Shown: positions 2,216 through 26,039 of the stretch, piece by piece
How positions within the stretch are numbered: the stretch's first letter is position 1
How the letters are laid out: each line of letters begins with the position of its first letter
NCBI GenBank assembly: GCA_963820525.1
Contig: CAWGAA010000001.1
Coordinates: 1,952,001 to 2,016,000, forward strand
DNA length: 64,000 nucleotides
From: an uncultured Spirochaetota bacterium
GTDB taxonomy: Bacteria > Spirochaetota > Spirochaetia > SZUA-6 > Fen-1364
Reading direction: 5' to 3'
The notes under the pieces: model-generated
Told to the model about the DNA's origin: nothing
What the model saw: the letters and a program-made list of their open reading frames with translations, nothing else
Databases searched by the model: none
Translations under genes and position numbers: made by a program

Positions 2216-3184
2216 CTACAAGCGGCCGTCAAGGGGACTCTTGATGGCGATGCCCGGCTTCTTCATGACATGGGTATAAATCATGGTGGTTGACACGTCG
2301 CTGTGGCCCAAGAGCTCCTGCACCGTGCGGATATCAGTGCCGGTTTCCAGCAAATGTGTCGCAAAACAATGGCGAAATGTGTGGCAGCCGATGGGCTTAA
2401 CGATACCGGCAAGTTTCCCCGCTCTCTTGACGGCGCGCTGAAGCACGGATTCATGGACATGATGTCTTCTGCGTGTTCCGGTTTGGGGGTCCGCAGATAG
2501 ACTCTTTGCGGGAAACACATATTGCCATGGCCACTCGGTTTCCGCCGAAGGGTGCTTTCTCGACAGAGCGTACGGAAGCTCGACACCCCCGAAACCTCGC
2601 TTGAGGAACTCCGTATGCAAGGCTTGCACCCTCACAAGATGCCTTTTCAGCTCCGCCACAAGTGCCACAGGAAGAACGGTAACGCGGTCCTTGAACCCCT
2701 TGCCCTCATGCACGGTGATCTGTTGCAGCTCAAAGTCGATATCTTTCACGCGCAGACTCAAACACTCCTTCAATCTCAGCCCGCTTCCGTAGAGAAGACC
2801 AGCCATGAGTCGAGTCTCTCCCGTCAGAACGGCCAACACTCTTTCAATCTCGTCGGCCGACAGCACCACGGGTATGCGTTTCGGGCGCCGGGCGCGGATG
2901 GCATCTATCGATCCGAGCTCTTTATGAATAACGTTCTTGTAGAAAAACACCAGAGCGTTGAGCGCCTGGTTCTGCGTCGAGGCGGAAACCCGTTCATTCA
3001 CGGCGAGATGATTGAGGAAGGCCTTGACTTCGACATCACCCATCGACTCAAGCGCACGTCTCTTGTGGAAATTGAAGAAGCGGCCAACCCAATTTACGTA
3101 GACTCGTTCTGTTTGAAGAGAGTAATGCCTCAGTCTCATTACATCTCTAAGATGATCTGAAAGCTGGTGCTTCTGTACGTCCAT
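2216..3184 (-). CDS. intI: Integron integrase IntI
   Basis: Tyrosine recombinase motifs [20 protein letters not shown]...TTMIYTH plus integron-specific insert [10 protein letters not shown]...WQYVFP...RRHH; AGGAGGA RBS. Confidence 0.97.
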
Positions 3185-3559
3185 CAACGATGTCCTCCTG
3201 GTTTGAAGTTCTGGACGGCAAATCCAAGTGATGGTCTAATAACCAGCGCTATATTCAGCAATGACGGCTGGATTATTCATTCTGATTGAAAAAGAGAGCG
3301 TTTTTGCATAGATAGAATGGTGATTTCGGGCGCGAGAATTGATTAAGAAGTCTATGGTAGGCAAATAGCGTGCATATCCAACTGCAATCGGCCTATTAAC
3401 GTACGGATAGATGTAATAAACTCTATAAGGGTTGCTTCCGAGCGATTCTGCGAATAGCAATACGCCAACGGAAGCAAGATGCACGGAAGCTATCGCGCGG
3501 AAAGGCTGTCATTCTAACGAATAAGCAGCGTTTCCCTGCGGAAAAGGTGGATATGAATG

Positions 3560-6416: not shown

Positions 6417-6424
6417 TTCAGGGG

Positions 6425-6541
6425 GGATAACAAATCGCTGGAGCAGACGCCTTGACCTACGCTTGAGAACTGGAAGCTACGCACGCTAAACTGAGGCCGC
6501 GGGGCGGTGGTCGGCGGCGCTGCTCAGCTCTATCGTTATGT
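6425..6541 (+). repeat. attC3 (117 bp, AAATCG subtype)
   Basis: GGATAAC-AAATC-GCTGGAGCAG...CTGCTCAGC-TCTATC-GTTATGT. Confidence 0.93.
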
Positions 6542-6611
6542 GGCCGAAACTAGAACTCAGCCGTCATTCTTGATCCCGGGCAATCTGCTGATCATACAGA
6601 ATGGAGAAGAC

Positions 6612-7454: not shown

Positions 7455-7510
7455 GCAAATTGAGGATCATGAGTGGAAGTCCGACTGCTTGACACAAAAG
7501 GAGACTTGTC

Positions 7511-8428
7511 ATGAATGTTCTGGACTCTATCGGAAACACGCCACTGATTCAGCTGAGTCGAATCGTGCCAAGTGGCGCCGGCCATATTTTCGTCAAGCTC
7601 GAGATGTGTAATCCAACAGGCAGCATGAAAGACCGCATGGCGCGTGCTGTTATCGAAGCCGCCGAGCACGGGAATCGGCTGACTCCCGGTGGAACGGTTG
7701 TCGAATACACAGGCGGTACGACTGGGATCTCGCTCGCATTCGTCTGTGCTGCGAAGGGATACAGTATAGAGATCGTGTTTTCTGATGCCTTTAGCCCGGA
7801 AAAAGCCCAAATAATGAAGGCGCTGGGAGCTCACGTTACAGTTGTGCCAAGCGGAGGCAAGGGAATCACTCAGAGTGTCATCATGCGAATGATAGAGCAG
7901 GCAAGATCCATCAGCCAAAGGCCAGGCCACTGGTGGTCGGACCAGCTAAACAACAGGGACGCGGTTGGGGCCTATCACGCACTCGGGGAGGAAATCTGGG
8001 AACAAACAAAGGGCAGGGTGGATGCATTCGTTCAAGCCGTAGGTACGGCACATTCAATTCATGGGACAATGGAGGCACTGTCTGGGCATAAGCAGAACAT
8101 TCACGTGGTGGCGGTAGAGCCCGAGGAATCAGCGGTACTCTCTGGCCGCGCACCTGGATCGCACAGCATCGAAGGGTCGGGTATCGGATTTGTGCCCCCT
8201 TTGTGGGAACCAGATAAAGTACACGAGATAATGACGGTCTCCACTCAAGAGGCCGAGGCAATGGCACGGCGGTTGGCGCGAGAAGAGGGGATTTTCGCCG
8301 GCACTTCGTCAGGTGCGAATGTAGTTGCAGCACTTCGACTCGCTGAGCGACTGGGCCCCAAAGCAACCGTTACGACGCTAATGGTTGACTCAGGCCAACG
8401 CTACCTAAGCACTGGCGTGTTTCGGTAG
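7511..8428 (+). CDS. Cassette 5: cysteine synthase-family PLP enzyme
   Basis: IGNTPL, NPTGSMKDR (PLP lysine), GTSSGAN, DSGQRYLST. Confidence 0.9.
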   Translation: MNVLDSIGNTPLIQLSRIVPSGAGHIFVKLEMCNPTGSMKDRMARAVIEAAEHGNRLTPGGTVVEYTGGTTGISLAFVCAAKGYSIEIVFSDAFSPEKAQIMKALGAHVTVVPSGGKGITQSVIMRMIEQARSISQRPGHWWSDQLNNRDAVGAYHALGEEIWEQTKGRVDAFVQAVGTAHSIHGTMEALSGHKQNIHVVAVEPEESAVLSGRAPGSHSIEGSGIGFVPPLWEPDKVHEIMTVSTQEAEAMARRLAREEGIFAGTSSGANVVAALRLAERLGPKATVTTLMVDSGQRYLSTGVFR

Positions 8429-8489
8429 TTCCATATATCGAAGCAGTTGCCGGTTTGCGCCTAACATCTATAACAACGCGTCTGTCAAG

Positions 8490-8651
8490 AAGACGAAAGC
8501 TCCAAAACCTCCTTCGAACACTACTATGATATAGCCGGTCCTACCGGAAACATCTATACGCCCTCATCGGGGCATGATCACCTGCAGCAGGGATGTCACA
8601 ATCAAATCGCGTGCCTGTAGCGGCACATGTTAGGCACGTGCTCACCCCTGC
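8490..8651 (-). ncRNA. Predicted bridge/seek RNA of IS copy 1 (ends approximate)
   Basis: Target loop GCCUAACA-hairpin-GCGAUUUG matches attC; donor loop UAUAGAUG-hairpin-UAUCAU matches the circle junction. Confidence 0.8.
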
Positions 8652-9700
8652 CTCGGTGAGACCTTCAATGGCTCTCGATATGGCTCGTTTTTCTTGAGGA
8701 CCCAAAAGGTGGATTCCGATAGATGACGGGCGAGCGCTCCGATGGCCACAGAGGATCCTTTGCGACCGCGAATCCTCAGATACAGCCTGGAGACGTGGCG
8801 GCCTATCCAGCCGCGCTGTGCGTGGTGCGCTGAGATTGCATTTGCCGCCTCGATGAAGGCCCATTTGAGATATTGATTGCTCTCGGTCCTCATTTTCCCA
8901 TAGTGGCACTTGCCACCGCTGGAGCTCACCCGTGGAGTGGTGCCGCTATAACTGCTGAACTGTGAAGCGGTGCAAAACCGCTCGATGCAACCGACCTCTC
9001 GATCGATAACGATTACCAAAATGTCCCCGACGCCAGGAAGAGTCTTTAGCAGCTGCATGCTGGGGGTTAGCGAGACCTGGCTGCGGATGCGCTCCTCCAA
9101 AGAGGATATCTGAAGGCTGATGAAATCCAGAAGTTGGAGATGTTGTTCCAAGCAGCGAGCTGTCTCCGGGGGAAGCCGGGACACGGCAGAGCTCAACCAT
9201 GATCGTCCCCGCTGTGAGAATACCTGGCAACCATCCTCAGCAGACAAGGCGTACTTGGCAAGGATCGAGTGAATGCGGTTCTTCAAAGACGTTCGCATCC
9301 TGCACAGGACCATTCGTGTGCGAGGCAATTCGCGCTGATCACGTAGGCCAGATGGCGGCAGCCAAACGGTAGGAAGGCTGCCAAGCCTAAGGAGGGTAGC
9401 AAGACCACCGGCGTCCAGTTTATCGGTCTTGTTCACATTTCCCATCAACAGTTTGGCCTTGCCGGGATTTGTTAGCAAAGGAACACACCCTGAAGCTTCG
9501 ATTTCATCAGCAATCCAGTACCAATTGCCTACGCTCTCCAAAGCAACCGGGGTGCCAGAGGGGAGTCGTGAGAAAAAGCAGGAGATGGTTCCCGGAGCAT
9601 GATTGATACGGACTCGATTCAGAACCTTGCCCTTCGGGTCCTGGATCTCGAGCTGAGAGTAGTGCTTATGAGCATCACACCCAACACTCAACGACTGCAT
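8642..9700 (-). CDS. IS110-family DEDD recombinase/transposase
   Basis: GCDAHK, ALES, KTDKLDA, LPGVG, SSGGK; AGGAGG RBS. Confidence 0.95.
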   Translation of the reverse strand: MQSLSVGCDAHKHYSQLEIQDPKGKVLNRVRINHAPGTISCFFSRLPSGTPVALESVGNWYWIADEIEASGCVPLLTNPGKAKLLMGNVNKTDKLDAGGLATLLRLGSLPTVWLPPSGLRDQRELPRTRMVLCRMRTSLKNRIHSILAKYALSAEDGCQVFSQRGRSWLSSAVSRLPPETARCLEQHLQLLDFISLQISSLEERIRSQVSLTPSMQLLKTLPGVGDILVIVIDREVGCIERFCTASQFSSYSGTTPRVSSSGGKCHYGKMRTESNQYLKWAFIEAANAISAHHAQRGWIGRHVSRLYLRIRGRKGSSVAIGALARHLSESTFWVLKKNEPYREPLKVSPRQG

Positions 9701-9969
9701 TCTGCACCTCCTCATGGGCGACGTAGCCCTACGGAGCACAATAGTAGCAAGCGATGCAGCGCTGTTATATTATCAAATCGTTGCAGTTGTCCCCTAGAAA
9801 GCTGTGTCGAACAGCTGATTCAGCCTGGCAATTCCATTGGGTGCAGTGCTGATGCGGCGGGGCAACTGAACTCTATGTTATGAGGCGCAAGTTTTTTTAA
9901 GACGTTTTGCGTCGGCAGCTTGTGCGAATCTAGTCAGTATGATATATACCTTATTTTGGGGGTAATTCC

Positions 9970-11187
9970 ATGATTCACAAGCTATTGCTAAAGAACTTCA
10001 GAGCTATTGAACAACAGGAGATAGAACTTGGAAAAATTTCAATCTTTACTGGTCCCAATAATAGCGGGAAGTCTACTCTTATCTACGGACTTCTCACCCT
10101 CAAAAACATGATTCTCAACTCAAACCAAAGTCTTGATGGTTTTTTGAACCTGGGATTCCTTAGCCTAGGTGGTTTTAGCCAGACAGTTTATTTTAAGGAC
10201 GAGAATAGGCAGATCTCAATAGGTATTGGAAGCAAGACTGAAGAAATATCTTCAGAATATATGGCTACACTTGGAAAAAAAGCAAGTACACTTAATATAC
10301 ATGCACATGAACCATTAGAAATCAGCTTAGATCTCAATGTTACTTTCCCATACCCAGCTAATGCTAGCACAGGTGCAGAGCTACAGACAGACTACGGAAA
10401 GCTCAGCATTACGTGGAATGGTATAACGCCTACGCTAACGGCCGAGAGTGTTGAGGCTGATTTAGTTCCGAAGCAGAAGGAATTGCTCCGCAAAGTTTCG
10501 CTTTCTATAACGAATCCGCTAGAAGAACTAAGATCGGTTGATTTCATTCCTCTTCGACGTGGTTTTATAAAACCTACTTACTCATCTGTTCCCCTACAGG
10601 CGCAACTTCTAAGCGATGAAGAACTCGCAACGCTCCTTGCTACAGATCGTGACTTAGAAGGAAAGGTTGCCTTCTATCTTGAAAAAATCTTGGATCGGAC
10701 TTTTTCTGTCAGGTCAACAATTGGCACTGCAAATTTTGCCCTTCAATCAAGAGATAGAGTAACAGGATTTGTCAGCGACCTTGTTAATGAAGGATTTGGT
10801 ACTAACCAGCTTGTTACAATATTAACAAAGGCTCTACGGAAAGAAGTTTCAACTATCTGCATTGAGGAAATAGAGATCCATTTGCATCCTGAACTCATGA
10901 ACAAAGTAATATCAGTGCTGATCGATATCGCAAACGAAGAGAACAAACAATTTATTATTTCTACTCATAGTGAGCATATTGTTTCTTCAGCTCTAAACCA
11001 TATTTCAACAGGTAAACTTAATAGTAGTGACTTTAAACTTTACTATCTCCACAAGGAAAAGAAGCGTGCAATTGTTGAGCAGCAGATAGTAAATGAAAAA
11101 GGTCAAGTAGAAGGCGGACTTAAAAGTTTCTATGATACAGATCTGAAGAATATTAGAGACTTTTTTAACATCAAAAACGAAAAATAA
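9970..11187 (+). CDS. Cassette 6 gene A: ABC-type ATPase (AAA_15/AAA_21-like, DUF3696-like C-terminus)
   Basis: GPNNSGKS, EGFGTNQ, IEEIEIHLHP, STHS, NEKGQVEG..SFYD. Confidence 0.88.
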   Translation: MIHKLLLKNFRAIEQQEIELGKISIFTGPNNSGKSTLIYGLLTLKNMILNSNQSLDGFLNLGFLSLGGFSQTVYFKDENRQISIGIGSKTEEISSEYMATLGKKASTLNIHAHEPLEISLDLNVTFPYPANASTGAELQTDYGKLSITWNGITPTLTAESVEADLVPKQKELLRKVSLSITNPLEELRSVDFIPLRRGFIKPTYSSVPLQAQLLSDEELATLLATDRDLEGKVAFYLEKILDRTFSVRSTIGTANFALQSRDRVTGFVSDLVNEGFGTNQLVTILTKALRKEVSTICIEEIEIHLHPELMNKVISVLIDIANEENKQFIISTHSEHIVSSALNHISTGKLNSSDFKLYYLHKEKKRAIVEQQIVNEKGQVEGGLKSFYDTDLKNIRDFFNIKNEK

Positions 11188-11654
11188 TGAACCTCGTTGT
11201 CAATGAGTGGCTACTCGAGTTTTTTTTGCCAGGTACACTTCCAGAGAATTATGAAGAGCTTTTTAGGTTTTTTGACAGTGTTCAAGAATGCAAACGTAAA
11301 ATAATAATTGGACGGGAGACACAATTCACTATTAAATTCTACCGTTTCATGAAATTATATGGCAATAATCTATCATTCAAGCAGAATTACGTTAAACTCC
11401 ATCGACTTTTATTTATCGACACTACCCGTACAATTATAGTTGAAAGACATGAAATTAAAAATATTCCTGATAAAGATATGGAAGGTGTTCATAGTGATGA
11501 TCGCTATCTACTTGAGCTTGCAGCCTCAGTTCCTAACAGTATAATTATATCAACTGATAATCGGCTTATAGATGCATTAGCAAGAATGCCACAATACCCA
11601 ATTATTCATTTGAAGGATTATTTAAAAACTTTCAATGAAAAAGGATGTGAATGA
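11187..11654 (+). CDS. Cassette 6 gene B: PIN-like domain protein
   Basis: N-terminal LVVNE strand, DDRYLLELA, IIISTD; TAATG overlap with gene A. Confidence 0.6.
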   Translation: MNLVVNEWLLEFFLPGTLPENYEELFRFFDSVQECKRKIIIGRETQFTIKFYRFMKLYGNNLSFKQNYVKLHRLLFIDTTRTIIVERHEIKNIPDKDMEGVHSDDRYLLELAASVPNSIIISTDNRLIDALARMPQYPIIHLKDYLKTFNEKGCE

Positions 11655-11966: not shown

Positions 11967-12626
11967 GTGAGCGACCTATACAAGAAGCGATTCGCAGAGC
12001 TTCAGCTACAGATGGAGCAGCTTCTCGCCTCAAAGAAGTCGGCTTTCGACGAGTACCTACATAAGACTCGCGAGGAGATTGATGGCAATCTCCTACTCGA
12101 GTGGACGGTGAAAACAAGAAGCCTGATTGGCAAGGCGTGCGGAATGGAATCGGAACACTACAAGGAGTTCTCTGAGAACGATGCCACAGGCGCGTACAGT
12201 ACTTACCTAGCCACGCTCGAACGTCTTCGGGCAATCTTCCTTGCCGCAAAGGAAGATTACGAAGGCGGGTATCTGAGGACCACCAGATCACTCGTACAGG
12301 CGGACCTTTTCGACTCCGAACTGGAGCAGGCGACGTCACTGATTGACGCTGGCTACAGGCTACCTGCTGCTGTCGTGGCTGGAGTGGTCTTGGAGACGTC
12401 ACTCAGAGAGCTCTGTACACGGGAAGGGCTGCCGCACGGAAAACTTGATAAAATGAATTCGGATCTGGCCAAAGCTGGAAAGTACAACGTACTCCAGCAG
12501 AAGCGAATCACTGCGCTCGCAGATATCAGAAACGCAGCTGCTCACGGCAATCCTGAGAATTTCACTGATCAAGACGTGATAGACATGATTCGAGATGTCA
12601 AACGGTTTCTGGCTGAACACGCGTGA
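11967..12626 (+). CDS. Cassette 7: DUF4145/HEPN-like protein
   Basis: AAVVAGVVLE helix and Rx4H motif RNAAAH; GGAGG RBS with GTG start. Confidence 0.8.
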   Translation: MSDLYKKRFAELQLQMEQLLASKKSAFDEYLHKTREEIDGNLLLEWTVKTRSLIGKACGMESEHYKEFSENDATGAYSTYLATLERLRAIFLAAKEDYEGGYLRTTRSLVQADLFDSELEQATSLIDAGYRLPAAVVAGVVLETSLRELCTREGLPHGKLDKMNSDLAKAGKYNVLQQKRITALADIRNAAAHGNPENFTDQDVIDMIRDVKRFLAEHA

Positions 12627-12728
12627 TGCGGACGCGTGATTCGTTGAGCAGCAAATGGGTCATTCAGCGAAGAAGCGACTTTTGCAGCCCAAGCGCCACA
12701 TAACATCTATAACAACGCGTCTGTCAAG

Positions 12729-12890
12729 AAGACGAAAGCTCCAAAACCTCCTTCGAACACTACTATGATATAGCCGGTCCTACCGGAAACATCTATACGC
12801 CCTCATCGGGGCATGATCACCTGCAGCAGGGATGTCACAATCAAATCGCGTGCCTGTAGCGGCACATGTTATGCACGTGCTCACCCCTGC
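12729..12890 (-). ncRNA. Predicted bridge/seek RNA of IS copy 2 (ends approximate)
   Basis: Same as copy 1 except target guide GCAUAACA (T at 12872 vs G at 8633). Confidence 0.78.
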
Positions 12891-13798
12891 CTCGGTGAGA
12901 CCTTCAATGGCTCTCGATATGGCTCGTTTTTCTTGAGGACCCAAAAGGTGGATTCCGATAGATGACGGGCGAGCGCTCCGATGGCCACAGAGGATCCTTT
13001 GCGACCGCGAATCCTCAGATACAGCCTGGAGACGTGGCGGCCTATCCAGCCGCGCTGTGCGTGGTGCGCTGAGATTGCATTTGCCGCCTCGATGAAGGCC
13101 CATTTGAGATACTGATTGCTCTCGGTCCTCATTTTCCCATAGTGGCACTTGCCACCGCTGGAGCTCACCCGTGGAGTGGTGCCGCTATAACTGCTGAACT
13201 GTGAAGCGGTGCAAAACCGCTCGATGCAACCGACCTCTCGATCGATAACGATTGCCAAAATGTCCCCGACGCCAGGAAGAGTCTTTAGTAGCTGCATGCT
13301 GGGGGTTAGCGAGACCTGGCTGCGGATGCGCTCCTCCAAAGAGGATATCTGAAGGCTGATGAAATCCAGAAGTTGGAGATGTTGTTCCAAGCAGCGAGCT
13401 GTCTCCGGGGGAAGCCGGGACACGGCAGAGCTCAACCATGATCGTCCCCGCTGTGAGAATACCTGGCAACCATCCTCAGCAGACAAGGCGTACTTGGCAA
13501 GGATCGAGTGAATGCGGTTCTTCAAAGACGTTCGCATCCTGCACAGGACCATTCGTGTGCGAGGCAATTCGCGCTGATCACGTAGGCCAGCTGGAGGCAG
13601 CCAAACGGTAGGAAGGCTGCCAAGCCTAAGGAGGGTAGCAAGACCACCGGCGTCCAGTTTATCGGTCTTGTTCACATTTCCCATCAACAGTTTGGCCTTG
13701 CCGGGATTTGTTAGCAAAGGAACACACCCTGAAGCTGGACCTACCCCGATTTCATAGACACATGGTTAAGCAGTATTTTAGAGGGGTAAGGAAAGGCA

Positions 13799-14089
13799 AT
13801 GGCAGACACGAGGAAGAAATACACCAAAGAGTTCAAGCTCGATGCCATCCGGCTCCTGGAGTCAGGGACAAAGCCGGGACATGAGATTGAACGGGATCTG
13901 GGAATCGGCAGCGGACAGATCTACCGCTGGAGGAAGCAATTCAGTGAGGACGGGACACGAGCTTTCCCAGGCAACGGCAGGTCCCGTGACGAGGAATTGG
14001 CCGCCTTGCGCAAAGAGAACAAGGAGTTGCGTGAGGAACGGGACATTTTAAGAAAAGCAACAGCCATCTTCTCCAGACCCCCGAGATGA
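13799..14089 (+). CDS. IS3 transposase OrfA
   Basis: RKKYTKEFKLDA HTH, leucine-zipper tail ERDILRKA. Confidence 0.93.
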   Translation: MADTRKKYTKEFKLDAIRLLESGTKPGHEIERDLGIGSGQIYRWRKQFSEDGTRAFPGNGRSRDEELAALRKENKELREERDILRKATAIFSRPPR

Positions 14090-14955
14090 AGTACCAGATC
14101 ATGAGTAAACAGCGGGGAACCCACGGCGTGGAGAAGATGGCGGAAGTATTGGGAGTAGCGCGCAGTGGGTACTATGCCTGGCTCGACGGTAAAGAGAGTG
14201 CACGAGCACTCGAGGAGAAGGAGCTGATCGAGCAGATCCGGAAGATCCAGGGCGAGGTGCGTCACAGCTACGGAAGCCCGCGCATGCGGGAAGAACTGCT
14301 GAGGCGTGGGCGGCATGTGGGGAAGAACCGAGTTGCCCGAATCATGAGAGAGAATGCCCTTGGGCCGCAGCCGAAGAGGCGGTTTGTAGTGACCACGCAC
14401 TCGAAAGACGGCCAGGAAGTGGCCGAAAACATAGTGAACAGGAACTTCGAAGCCTCCGCGGCGAATCGCGTGTGGGTGTCCGACATAACCTACGTTGCGA
14501 CAGCCGAAGGGTGGATGTATTTATGCATCGTACTGGATCTGTACTCACGTCGAGTGGCGGGCTGGTCGCTGAGCTGCGAGCTGAGTGCCGAGCTGGTGCT
14601 GACGGCGGTAGTCATGGCCGCGATTCGTCGCCGCCCGCCGCGGGGACTGTTGTTTCATTCCGATCGCGGTGTGCAGTATACCAGCGGTCAGTTTGAAAAG
14701 TTTGCCAAAGGGCACGGATTCATTCAAAGCATGAGCCGTAAGGGCGACTGTTGGGACAACGCGTGCGCGGAGACGTTTTTCAAGACCTTGAGAGCAGAGT
14801 TGATTCGGGACAAGATCTACCGAAGCAGAGAGGAGGCCAGGAGAGCAATATTCGAATACGTGGAGATCTTCTATAATCGCAAGCGGCTTCACTCGTACCT
14901 CGGCTACCTCACACCGACCGAATATGAGGAGCTCGAGGAGCGGAAGACGGCATGA
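14086..14955 (+). CDS. IS3 transposase OrfB (DDE)
   Basis: [26 protein letters not shown] overlap with orfA. Confidence 0.95.
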
Positions 14956-15618
14956 TTGACGATCCAAGCCAGAGTGAGGAAAAAGCCTTGCGCGTAGAGG
15001 GCCGTGGTTGCGTTTTCGGAAGGCAGGTGGTGTTTGGATACCCCCCCGAAACCGAGACGCAGGTGCAATTCAGGGTGTCCACGAAATCGGGGGAACTCCA
15101 AGCTTCGATTTCATCAGCAATCCAGTACCAATTGCCTACGCTCTCCAAAGCAACCGGGGTGCCAGGGGGGAGTCGTGAGAAAAAGCAGGAGATGGTTCCC
15201 GGAGCATGATACGGACTCGATTCAGAACCTTGCCCTTCGGGTCCTGGATCTCGAGCTGAGAGTAGTGCTTATGAGCATCACACCCAACACTCAACGACTG
15301 CATTCTGCACCTCCTCATGGGCGACGTAGCCCTACGGAGCACAATAGTAGCAAGCGATGCAGCGCTATTATATTATCAAATCGTTGGAGCAGTCGCCTTG
15401 GACGCCCGTCGGAACTGTTGGTTCAGACCCGTAAGGAAGACCGATCTGTGGTTGTAGTCGGCGGCGCTGCTCAACTCTATGTTATCTGGACTTGCTGGCG
15501 TTCCCCTGACCGCCGGTGAACCTCGGCGCCGTCTTCGACTGACCTCACGCTCCCCTTCTGGGTACCATATCGAAAGGTTGGCGAAACGTTCGTTTGACAA
15601 GTGAAAAGGAGGATGTGC

Positions 15619-25340: not shown

Positions 25341-26039
25341 ATGCCCGACTATGCCGACATCTTCACCAACCATGCGGCCAAATATGACCTGCTGGTATCA
25401 CGGGAAGACTATCAGAACAACCTTTTCACAACGATCAACAGCCTGTACCTGCTGCAGAAGAGCTACGACGCGGCCGACCTTGGAGCTGGCACGGGGAGGG
25501 TCTCGTTCGTTCTGGCTCCCCACGTGAGGCATATCTATGGAATCGAAGTGTCGAAGGGCATGATCGGCCAGGCAAGAACCAGGCAGGCGCGGCAGGGAGT
25601 GGATAACATAGAGTTCAGGGAAGGAAGCCACCTCTCGATCCCATTGCCCGATCACTGCGTGGATCTCGTCGTCGAAGGATGGAGCTTCGGCTATCTCGCC
25701 GTTCAAAGCAAGGAAGAGTGGCGGCCGAACATCGAAAGGGTTTTCGCGGAGGTGGAAAGAATCGTCAGATCCAATGGAATCATCATTGTCATCGAGACTT
25801 TGGGAACGATGAGGGAGCAGCCGCAGCCGCCCGCAAACCTTCGGCCTTTCTACGATCACCTCGAACAGCGATTGGGGTTCGCCAAGAAGCAGATCCGAAC
25901 CGATTACAGGTTCCAGTCGATCGAGGAGGCTGTGGACCTCATATCGTTCTTCTTTGGAGAAGAGATGGGGCGGGAAACAAAGGCCAGAAACAGCGTTATC
26001 GTTCCGGAATGCACGGGAGTCTGGTACAAATACACGTGA
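25341..26039 (+). CDS. Class I SAM-dependent methyltransferase
   Basis: DLGAGTG; GAGGAGG RBS. Confidence 0.88.
   Translation: MPDYADIFTNHAAKYDLLVSREDYQNNLFTTINSLYLLQKSYDAADLGAGTGRVSFVLAPHVRHIYGIEVSKGMIGQARTRQARQGVDNIEFREGSHLSIPLPDHCVDLVVEGWSFGYLAVQSKEEWRPNIERVFAEVERIVRSNGIIIVIETLGTMREQPQPPANLRPFYDHLEQRLGFAKKQIRTDYRFQSIEEAVDLISFFFGEEMGRETKARNSVIVPECTGVWYKYT

Follow-up and report, generated by a model that had tools for sequence, protein, structure and literature searches.

The minus strand of positions 8465-9775 very probably represents an intact insertion sequence (IS) of the IS1111 family that carries its own guide RNA and lies in an integron attC site. Positions are those of the window, that is, the whole stretch of 64,000 nucleotides from an uncultured Spirochaetota bacterium that was analysed. 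The system is a good example of a known mechanism; new are the divergent environmental clade to which it belongs and its shifted crossover point. The genome contains two IS copies in total, which are 99% identical.

8465..9775, minus strand: IS copy 1, intact, both TG cores included (9775-9774 and 8466-8465), junctions read directly
8642..9700, minus strand: transposase gene (tnp), 353 aa from an ATG that sits behind GAGGAGG
9759..9769, minus strand: left subterminal inverted repeat TATAACAGCGC, whose counterpart is 8469-8479 (1 mismatch)
8469..8479, minus strand: right subterminal inverted repeat GCGTTGTTATA, 11 bp, partner of TATAACAGCGC
12704..15378, minus strand: IS copy 2, dead, interrupted by an IS3-family element at about 13737-15099 and with a 4-nt deletion

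The left junction of copy 1 is CGATT[TG]ATAATA (core at 9775-9774) and the right junction is TATAGA[TG]TTAGGC (core at 8466-8465), from which we infer the target GCCTAA[CA]AATCG and the circle junction TATAGA[TG]ATA. The same ends are present in copy 2 and in related elements. In both window copies, and likewise in the relatives, the junctions share the 2-nt core alone and a target duplication is absent. According to the available sections of the family literature, IS1111 elements possess subterminal inverted repeats of about 11-13 bp, with extensions of 7 or 6 bp on the left and 3 bp on the right, and such repeats together with a long 3' non-coding end set them apart from IS110 elements. The extensions found here measure 6-7 bp on the left (core counted) and 2-3 bp on the right. 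An equivalent of the left repeat is present in 26 related loci, and the repeats are perfect in many relatives. The non-coding ends of copy 1 comprise 175 nt downstream of tnp (8641-8467) versus 73 nt upstream (9773-9701).

Read from a GTG at 9739, the transposase reading frame (8642-9739) comprises 365 aa. Two Pfam families were matched above their cut-offs, DEDD_Tnp_IS110 (PF01548, residues 19-163, E 9.2e-13) and Transposase_20 (PF02371, residues 229-306, E 4.2e-17). Full-length relatives of the transposase are 79-80% identical; the best protein identity in PLSDB was 33.6%, and blastn with the whole IS against the PLSDB plasmids gave no DNA match. Thus, a DEDD transposase, subterminal repeats, a long 3' non-coding end and site-specific insertion without duplication place the element in the IS1111 family. 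The sequence-only reading of this DNA had described a compact 353-aa programmable recombinase. Its length was given correctly, but is ordinary for the family (about 300-456 aa), and the label of a programmable recombinase would apply by analogy with studied relatives.

Copy 1 interrupts an attC site of an integron whose integrase gene also lies in the window.

2216..3187, minus strand: integron integrase gene intI (TIGR02249, 448.6 bits against a cut-off of 265)
9776..9882, plus strand: rest of the interrupted attC, L'' to R', with the R'' half GCCTAA at 8459-8464

Pfam identified Phage_integrase and SAM_4 on intI. The cassette array is located downstream of intI on the plus strand, and the integron is chromosomal. 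A motif search revealed 9 attC-like repeats versus 0.98 expected; it was used instead of a crude RYYYAAC...GTTRRRY palindrome finder, whose threshold was too strict and which returned no attC. Cassette-like reading frames on the plus strand encode a BD-FAE hydrolase, a PLP enzyme, an AAA_15/AAA_21 ATPase and a protein with a weak HEPN match. Copy 1 occupies the R''/L'' end of its attC in an orientation opposite to the cassettes. Both copies have the same orientation, and the attC sites that they occupy, each at its R''/L'' end, are of a single subtype (..TAACAAATCG..). Taking intI, the attC repeats and both copies together, we found insertion into attC in a single orientation, as in IS1111-attC elements.

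Immediately downstream of tnp, the element contains a conserved RNA scaffold.

8651-8643, minus strand: 5' strand of the outer stem P1, GCAGGGGUG, overlapping the stop codon TGA (8644-8642)
8595-8587, minus strand: 3' strand of P1, CAUCCCUGC, pairing with 8651-8643
8587..8651, minus strand: target-binding module, in which P1 (8651-8643/8595-8587) and P2 (8640-8637/8600-8597) close an internal loop
8610..8627, minus strand: P3 hairpin GUGCC/GGCAC inside the target loop, compensatory changes in 4 of 6 pairs
8560..8573, minus strand: P4 hairpin between the loops, compensatory changes in 2 of 4 pairs, 96% of cells paired
8535..8547, minus strand: P5 hairpin CCGGU/ACCGG, conserved, 0 compensatory changes, 79.6% of cells paired in alignment A1

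All strings quoted in the sequence-only reading were recovered on the minus strand exactly where it had placed them, to the base. The MFE fold gives the outer stem and both hairpins (z = -2.36), and 3 of 200 shuffled sequences folded equally well. Given an alignment of 25 sequences, in which those with large insertions were left out, RNAalifold found P1-P4 unaided, with compensatory changes in 16 of the 22 predicted pairs. RNAalifold and pair counts revealed such changes in 8 of 8 pairs of P1 and in 2 of 4 pairs of P2. Within the alignment, 95.0% of cells were paired versus 78.9% after shuffling, and the covariation score was 0.451 versus 0.138. None of 500 shuffles reached the observed value, whichever measure was used, and slid controls of the alignment were 29-41% paired. 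Building a covariance model from homologous IS ends had been suggested as a check of the RNA; the outcome was positive, with a helix-closed internal loop that is conserved by covariation, as is typical of seekRNAs and bridge RNAs. A search of Rfam over 7500-10500 with E up to 1 gave no match. Contig depth in the metagenome runs was higher over 8530-8680, which carries no weight as evidence.

The relatives used here originate from a protein-seeded scan that yielded 59 loci, of which 11 with truncated matches were dropped to leave 48. The scaffold adjoins the stop codon in 44 of the 48 and is absent from L006, L017, L041 and L051. These relatives belong to Spirochaetota (74-80% identity), Chloroflexota, Actinomycetota, Acidobacteriota, Aminicenantes and other phyla. 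Of 24 genomes from the same bacterial family, 9 were matched by the covariance model; of 16 from other families of the order, none was. The model also exposed a further lineage (L074 and L077) with new guides that agree with its own flanks and a donor arm that agrees with its right end. This IS1111-type lineage, found through the RNA model alone, has the ends AGATATG and the target ..ACTCTG / ATATTC... Right ends were located in 33 of 46 sequences and left ends in 27. Finding the right end through the donor-arm repeat failed in 13 of the 46 (L024, L027, L036-L040, L042-L046 and L057), and the left ends of L005 and L033 were not found, these copies appearing 5'-truncated. Chloroflexota relatives (L008, L016, L031, L047 and L053-L057) have kept the guides and contain extra GC-rich hairpins, inserted before the donor arm or within the 5' target arm. 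Long non-coding ends are found in an Acidobacteriota group of relatives.

The first loop of the scaffold holds two arms that match the DNA on either side of the insertion.

8628..8635, minus strand: 5' target guide GCCUAACA, complementary at 8 of 8 positions to the sense core and right flank TG TTAGGC (8466-8459)
8601..8609, minus strand: 3' target guide CGAUUUG (same sequence as left flank and core, hence complementary to the antisense strand), followed by AU
8610-8603, minus strand: GCGAUUUG, the 3' string of the first loop as quoted in the sequence-only reading
12874-12867, minus strand: guide of copy 2, GCAUAACA, with the right flank TTATGT

That this loop reads both sides of the attC target had been proposed from the window, and the relatives agree: in at least 7 guide classes, both arms vary with the DNA that flanks the element, and they match opposite strands. 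Of 33 loci, 25 have a longest match of at least 6 nt between the 5' arm and the right flank, and in 21 of them it extends to at least 7 nt. Among these 33 loci, the match was 5 nt in L022, L031, L053 and L054 and 2-3 nt in L008, L035, L047 and L052, and a same-strand control for the arm never exceeded 5 nt. With one representative for each of 7 guide classes, the true pairing alone reached the sum for the 5' arm (1 of 5040 permutations). For the 3' arm, which equals the left flank, again the true pairing alone reached the observed score (1 of 40320 permutations). In 26 of 27 loci, the AU that follows the 3' arm is identical to bases 1 and 2 of the IS left end, bases that never vary.

We also compared random oligomers from the window with the 168-nt non-coding end in 20000 draws. 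The observed match length occurred by chance in 228 draws for the 8-nt complement of the right junction, in 1043 for the 7-nt left junction and in 123 for the 10-nt RE junction; 18 draws matched both target arms at once. The earlier description of target and donor as read on opposite strands, with core CA and core TG, respectively, is correct, but this is the published IS1111 arrangement, in which the complement of the top strand comes first.

The two near-identical copies in one genome represent a natural test of the guide rule, in which a single guide difference mirrors the targets. Between the two IS sequences there are 8 substitutions and the 4-nt deletion of copy 2, which corresponds to 9604-9607 of copy 1. 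The IS3-family insert of copy 2, with HTH_Tnp_1 and rve reading frames on the plus strand, interrupts the transposase gene. Guide base 8633 is C in copy 1 (GCCUAACA) and A in copy 2 (GCAUAACA), and the paired target base changes from G to T: the right flanks, TTAGGC for copy 1 versus TTATGT for copy 2, differ at the guide-paired base (attC-type target strings for comparing C or A are GCCTAACAAATCG and GCATAACAAATCG). By our own arithmetic, a complementary change at one of the 6 flank-reading bases would be expected among 8 substitutions with a probability of about 1%. The same guide polymorphism was present in contigs of 3 of 4 metagenome runs (X1, X2, X4 and X8). In L070, a C guide lies next to a TTATGT flank, which it mismatches. 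One contig of run X4 ends at 8463 and joins the right IS end to another flank, sense TG TTGGGTTTTCC; since this flank differs, the contig points to another insertion site, and it stops short of the guide.

The second loop is related to the right end of the IS.

8549..8558, minus strand: 5' arm of the donor loop, UAUAGAUGUU, comprising right end UAUAGA, core UG and the first right-flank bases UU
8558-8551, minus strand: the 8-nt donor arm of the sequence-only reading, UAUAGAUG, right IS end plus core
8526..8531, minus strand: UAUCAU, proposed as 3' donor guide and not supported as such

Both sides of the circle junction had been thought to be read by this loop. The 5' arm holds up as a match to the right IS end, and the 3' arm UAUCAU does not, judging from 19 loci. 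The 5' arm is a 10-nt repeat of 8473-8464 and equals the right end in 34 of 34 loci, a count that is partly built in because right ends were located through this very repeat. The weight of the donor-arm reading comes from five arm variants (ATAGATG, ATAGGTG, ATACATG, ATGGATG and AGATATG), each of which equals its own right end, from the flanking inverted repeats and from the left-end partners. Directly after the core, the arm has the base of the target flank in 32 of 34 loci; counted by distinct combinations, the agreement is 10 of 12. This base is T, C, G or A in different classes and equals the left-end base A in just 1 of 34 loci, which is the behaviour of a handshake base in an IS621-type bridge RNA.

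In an IS621-type donor loop, two arms read both sides of the junction; here, the 5' arm did and the 3' arm did not. As a 3' donor guide, UAUCAU had a 6-nt match in the two window copies alone, which base composition could account for (shuffle p about 0.07); in 19 further loci the best match spans 2-3 nt, and L004, the closest full relative, lacks a counterpart. When the stretch from donor arm to right end was searched in 26 loci, the window copies included, there was no match of at least 6 nt to the complement of core plus left end, and the matches that this search returned represent the right subterminal repeat itself. A helix closing loop two, formed by the segment between P1 and P4 with the stretch after P5, likewise found no support: 354 of 5000 permutations reached the observed value, with an own-pair mean of 4.52 versus a cross-pair mean of 4.23.

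Viewed together with studied relatives, these relationships suggest how the element may move. Its 3' non-coding end would encode a seekRNA or bridge RNA that starts at the transposase stop codon. The first module (8651-8587) would form an internal loop closed by two helices, in which the target is bound by base pairing, on its sense strand (core TG and right flank) by the 5' arm GCCUAACA and on its antisense strand (left flank and core) by the 3' arm CGAUUUG. The AU after this 3' arm would match the left end of the incoming IS. In the second module, which follows a short hairpin, the 5' arm UAUAGAUG is predicted to pair with the antisense strand of the right end plus core, and the base after it would match the right flank of the target, like the handshake guides of IS621. 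The element would excise as a circle, and its joined ends would form a promoter (TTGACA-17 nt-GATAAT) that places transposase and RNA on one transcript. A complex of RNA and protein would then bring the circle junction and a matching attC together for strand exchange at the TG core. The sequences themselves show the RNA scaffold, the three guide relationships and the integron context. That the guide is an RNA, that the transposase binds it, the circle with its promoter and the chemistry of the exchange are all presumed by analogy. A guide that acts at the DNA level would be compatible with the same sequences.

The putative promoter comprises one element within the right end.

8483..8488, minus strand: TTGACA, putative -35-like element, found by eye, with a function suggested by analogy with ISEc11

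Also by eye, TTGACA and GATAAT would be spaced by 17 nt if the ends were joined, with GATAAT spanning the junction. TTGAC is kept at the same place in the right ends of relatives. No sigma-70-like promoter was found in the linear element, which leaves expression in place without explanation. Neither a circle junction nor an empty-site joint was reported in the metagenome contigs of X1, X2, X4 and X8.

Tentatively, the RNA may contain three reading arms alone, two for the target and one for the right end, the latter with a handshake of one base; this is a possibility that we rate below even chances. As part of it, protein and the subterminal inverted repeat may suffice for recognition of the left end, with no RNA involved. 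If true, this would be a simpler, asymmetric variant of bridge recombination, and it would also account for short seekRNAs sufficing in IS1111 elements.

An RNA that reads even less of the donor has to be considered as well, although we regard it as improbable. Here, the first module alone would guide, as a short seekRNA like that of ISEc11, and the second loop would have no part in donor reading: where it resembles the right end, this would be a protein-binding repeat or reflect a shared sequence preference of the transposase, and protein would recognise the ends through the subterminal inverted repeats. The available sections on ISEc11 describe a short 82-nt seekRNA that sufficed for transposition and outperformed the long form, and the matches reported there are all to the target, so that the second loop may be dispensable. 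The same view gains from the 3' donor arm, matchless in 19 loci, from P5, which lacks compensatory changes, and from the closing helix of loop two, unsupported at 354 of 5000 permutations. It conflicts with the five arm variants that each equal their own right end. Moreover, a protein-binding repeat would not explain why the base after the core follows the target flank (32 of 34) and not the left end (A in 1 of 34). Judged by eye, the published non-coding ends of ISKpn4, ISPst6, ISPa11 and ISEc11 likewise contain an internal ATAT(A/G) in agreement with the last bases of the respective element.

Very unlikely, in our judgement, is that the scaffold does not guide at all and acts as a terminator, a stability element of the transposase mRNA or a fold of single-stranded DNA, the flank matches being due to chance or left over from the target. 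A terminator scan does flag the P3 hairpin, which is followed by a T-rich run. But both arms change with the flanks over at least 7 target classes and between two copies that are 99% identical, and they lie unpaired within a helix-closed loop. In addition, homologous RNAs were bound to their transposase in the experiments described in the available sections of the published work.

The favoured reading, a seekRNA or bridge RNA from the 3' non-coding end, can be compared with published systems as far as the available parts of these papers describe them. Siddiquee et al. 2024 (PMC11187229) reported seekRNAs downstream of tnp in ISEc11, ISPa11 and the attC-targeting ISKpn4 and ISPst6; those of ISKpn4 and ISPst6 co-purify with the transposase, and the complement of the top strand comes first. 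Durrant et al. 2024 (PMC11208160) predicted a bridge RNA in the right end of 93% of IS1111 elements. The element described here resembles the IS1111-attC group (ISKpn4, ISPst6 and ISPa25) in having a DEDD transposase and, after it, a 3' non-coding end as the source of the guide RNA, and in the top-strand complement located 5' of the bottom-strand match. Attachment site end and orientation are also the same (published top strands CGAATTGTTAG and CGCATTGTTAG versus CGATTTGTTAG here), and natural guide retargeting has been reported for that group too. However, the insertion points differ. Table 1 of a 2026 review (PMC13604230) lists the targets of ISKpn4 and ISPst6 as ..TTGAA*CGAATTGTTAG; these elements insert at AA*CG upstream of CGAATTG, whereas the TG used here lies just before TTAGG. 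The crossover is thus about 5-7 bp closer to R'' than in ISKpn4 and ISPst6. A further difference concerns the hosts, which here are environmental Spirochaetota, Chloroflexota, Actinomycetota and others, and the integron, which is chromosomal.

With the bridge RNA of IS621, as presented in the accessible portions of two reports (Durrant et al. 2024, PMC11208160; Hiraizumi et al. 2024, PMC11208158), the element shares a single RNA with a target loop and a donor loop, every arm being dedicated to a single strand on one side of the 2-nt core. Also common to both are handshake bases, additional positions that agree with the partner DNA once strands have been exchanged; here, these would be the AU of the 3' target arm and the U of the 5' donor arm. 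In contrast to IS621, whose RNA is located in the left end, the RNA lies in the right end downstream of tnp, the order of the arms in the target loop is reversed, the subterminal inverted repeats are long, the second donor arm has no readable match and the core is TG instead of CT. ISEc11, in the sections available on it, is similar with respect to subterminal repeats, a junction promoter formed by circularisation and a long seekRNA co-transcribed with tnp, but its target is linear and not an attC.

With these results, the range of IS1111 elements that are RNA-guided and target attC comes to include environmental phyla and chromosomal integrons; the understanding of RNA-guided IS1111 systems is left unchanged. 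The relatives represent a table of guide, flank and handshake rules that can be used for choosing or programming orthologues.

Several side observations concern the integron and its genome. The cassettes between the IS copies (9970-11654 and 11967-12626) look defence-like: one contains the AAA_15/AAA_21 ATPase with an overlapping 155-aa reading frame of no known family, the other the weak HEPN (RiboL-PSP) match, which is under the Pfam cut-off. An attC-like R' motif, GAACTCTATGTTATC, is present at 25602-25616 on the minus strand, opposite to the cassettes and about 10 kb past the last clear one. A second integron-integrase match in the same genome (G000:C1:682092-683030) scores 410.7 bits, above the cut-off, and has neither an IS copy nor a match to the RNA model beside it. 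Finally, an empty attC of the occupied subtype is located at about 6422-6545 (GGATAACAAATCGCTG ... GTTATGT). It differs by one distal base from the ideal target of the copy 2 guide, and this near-match makes it a potential next landing site.
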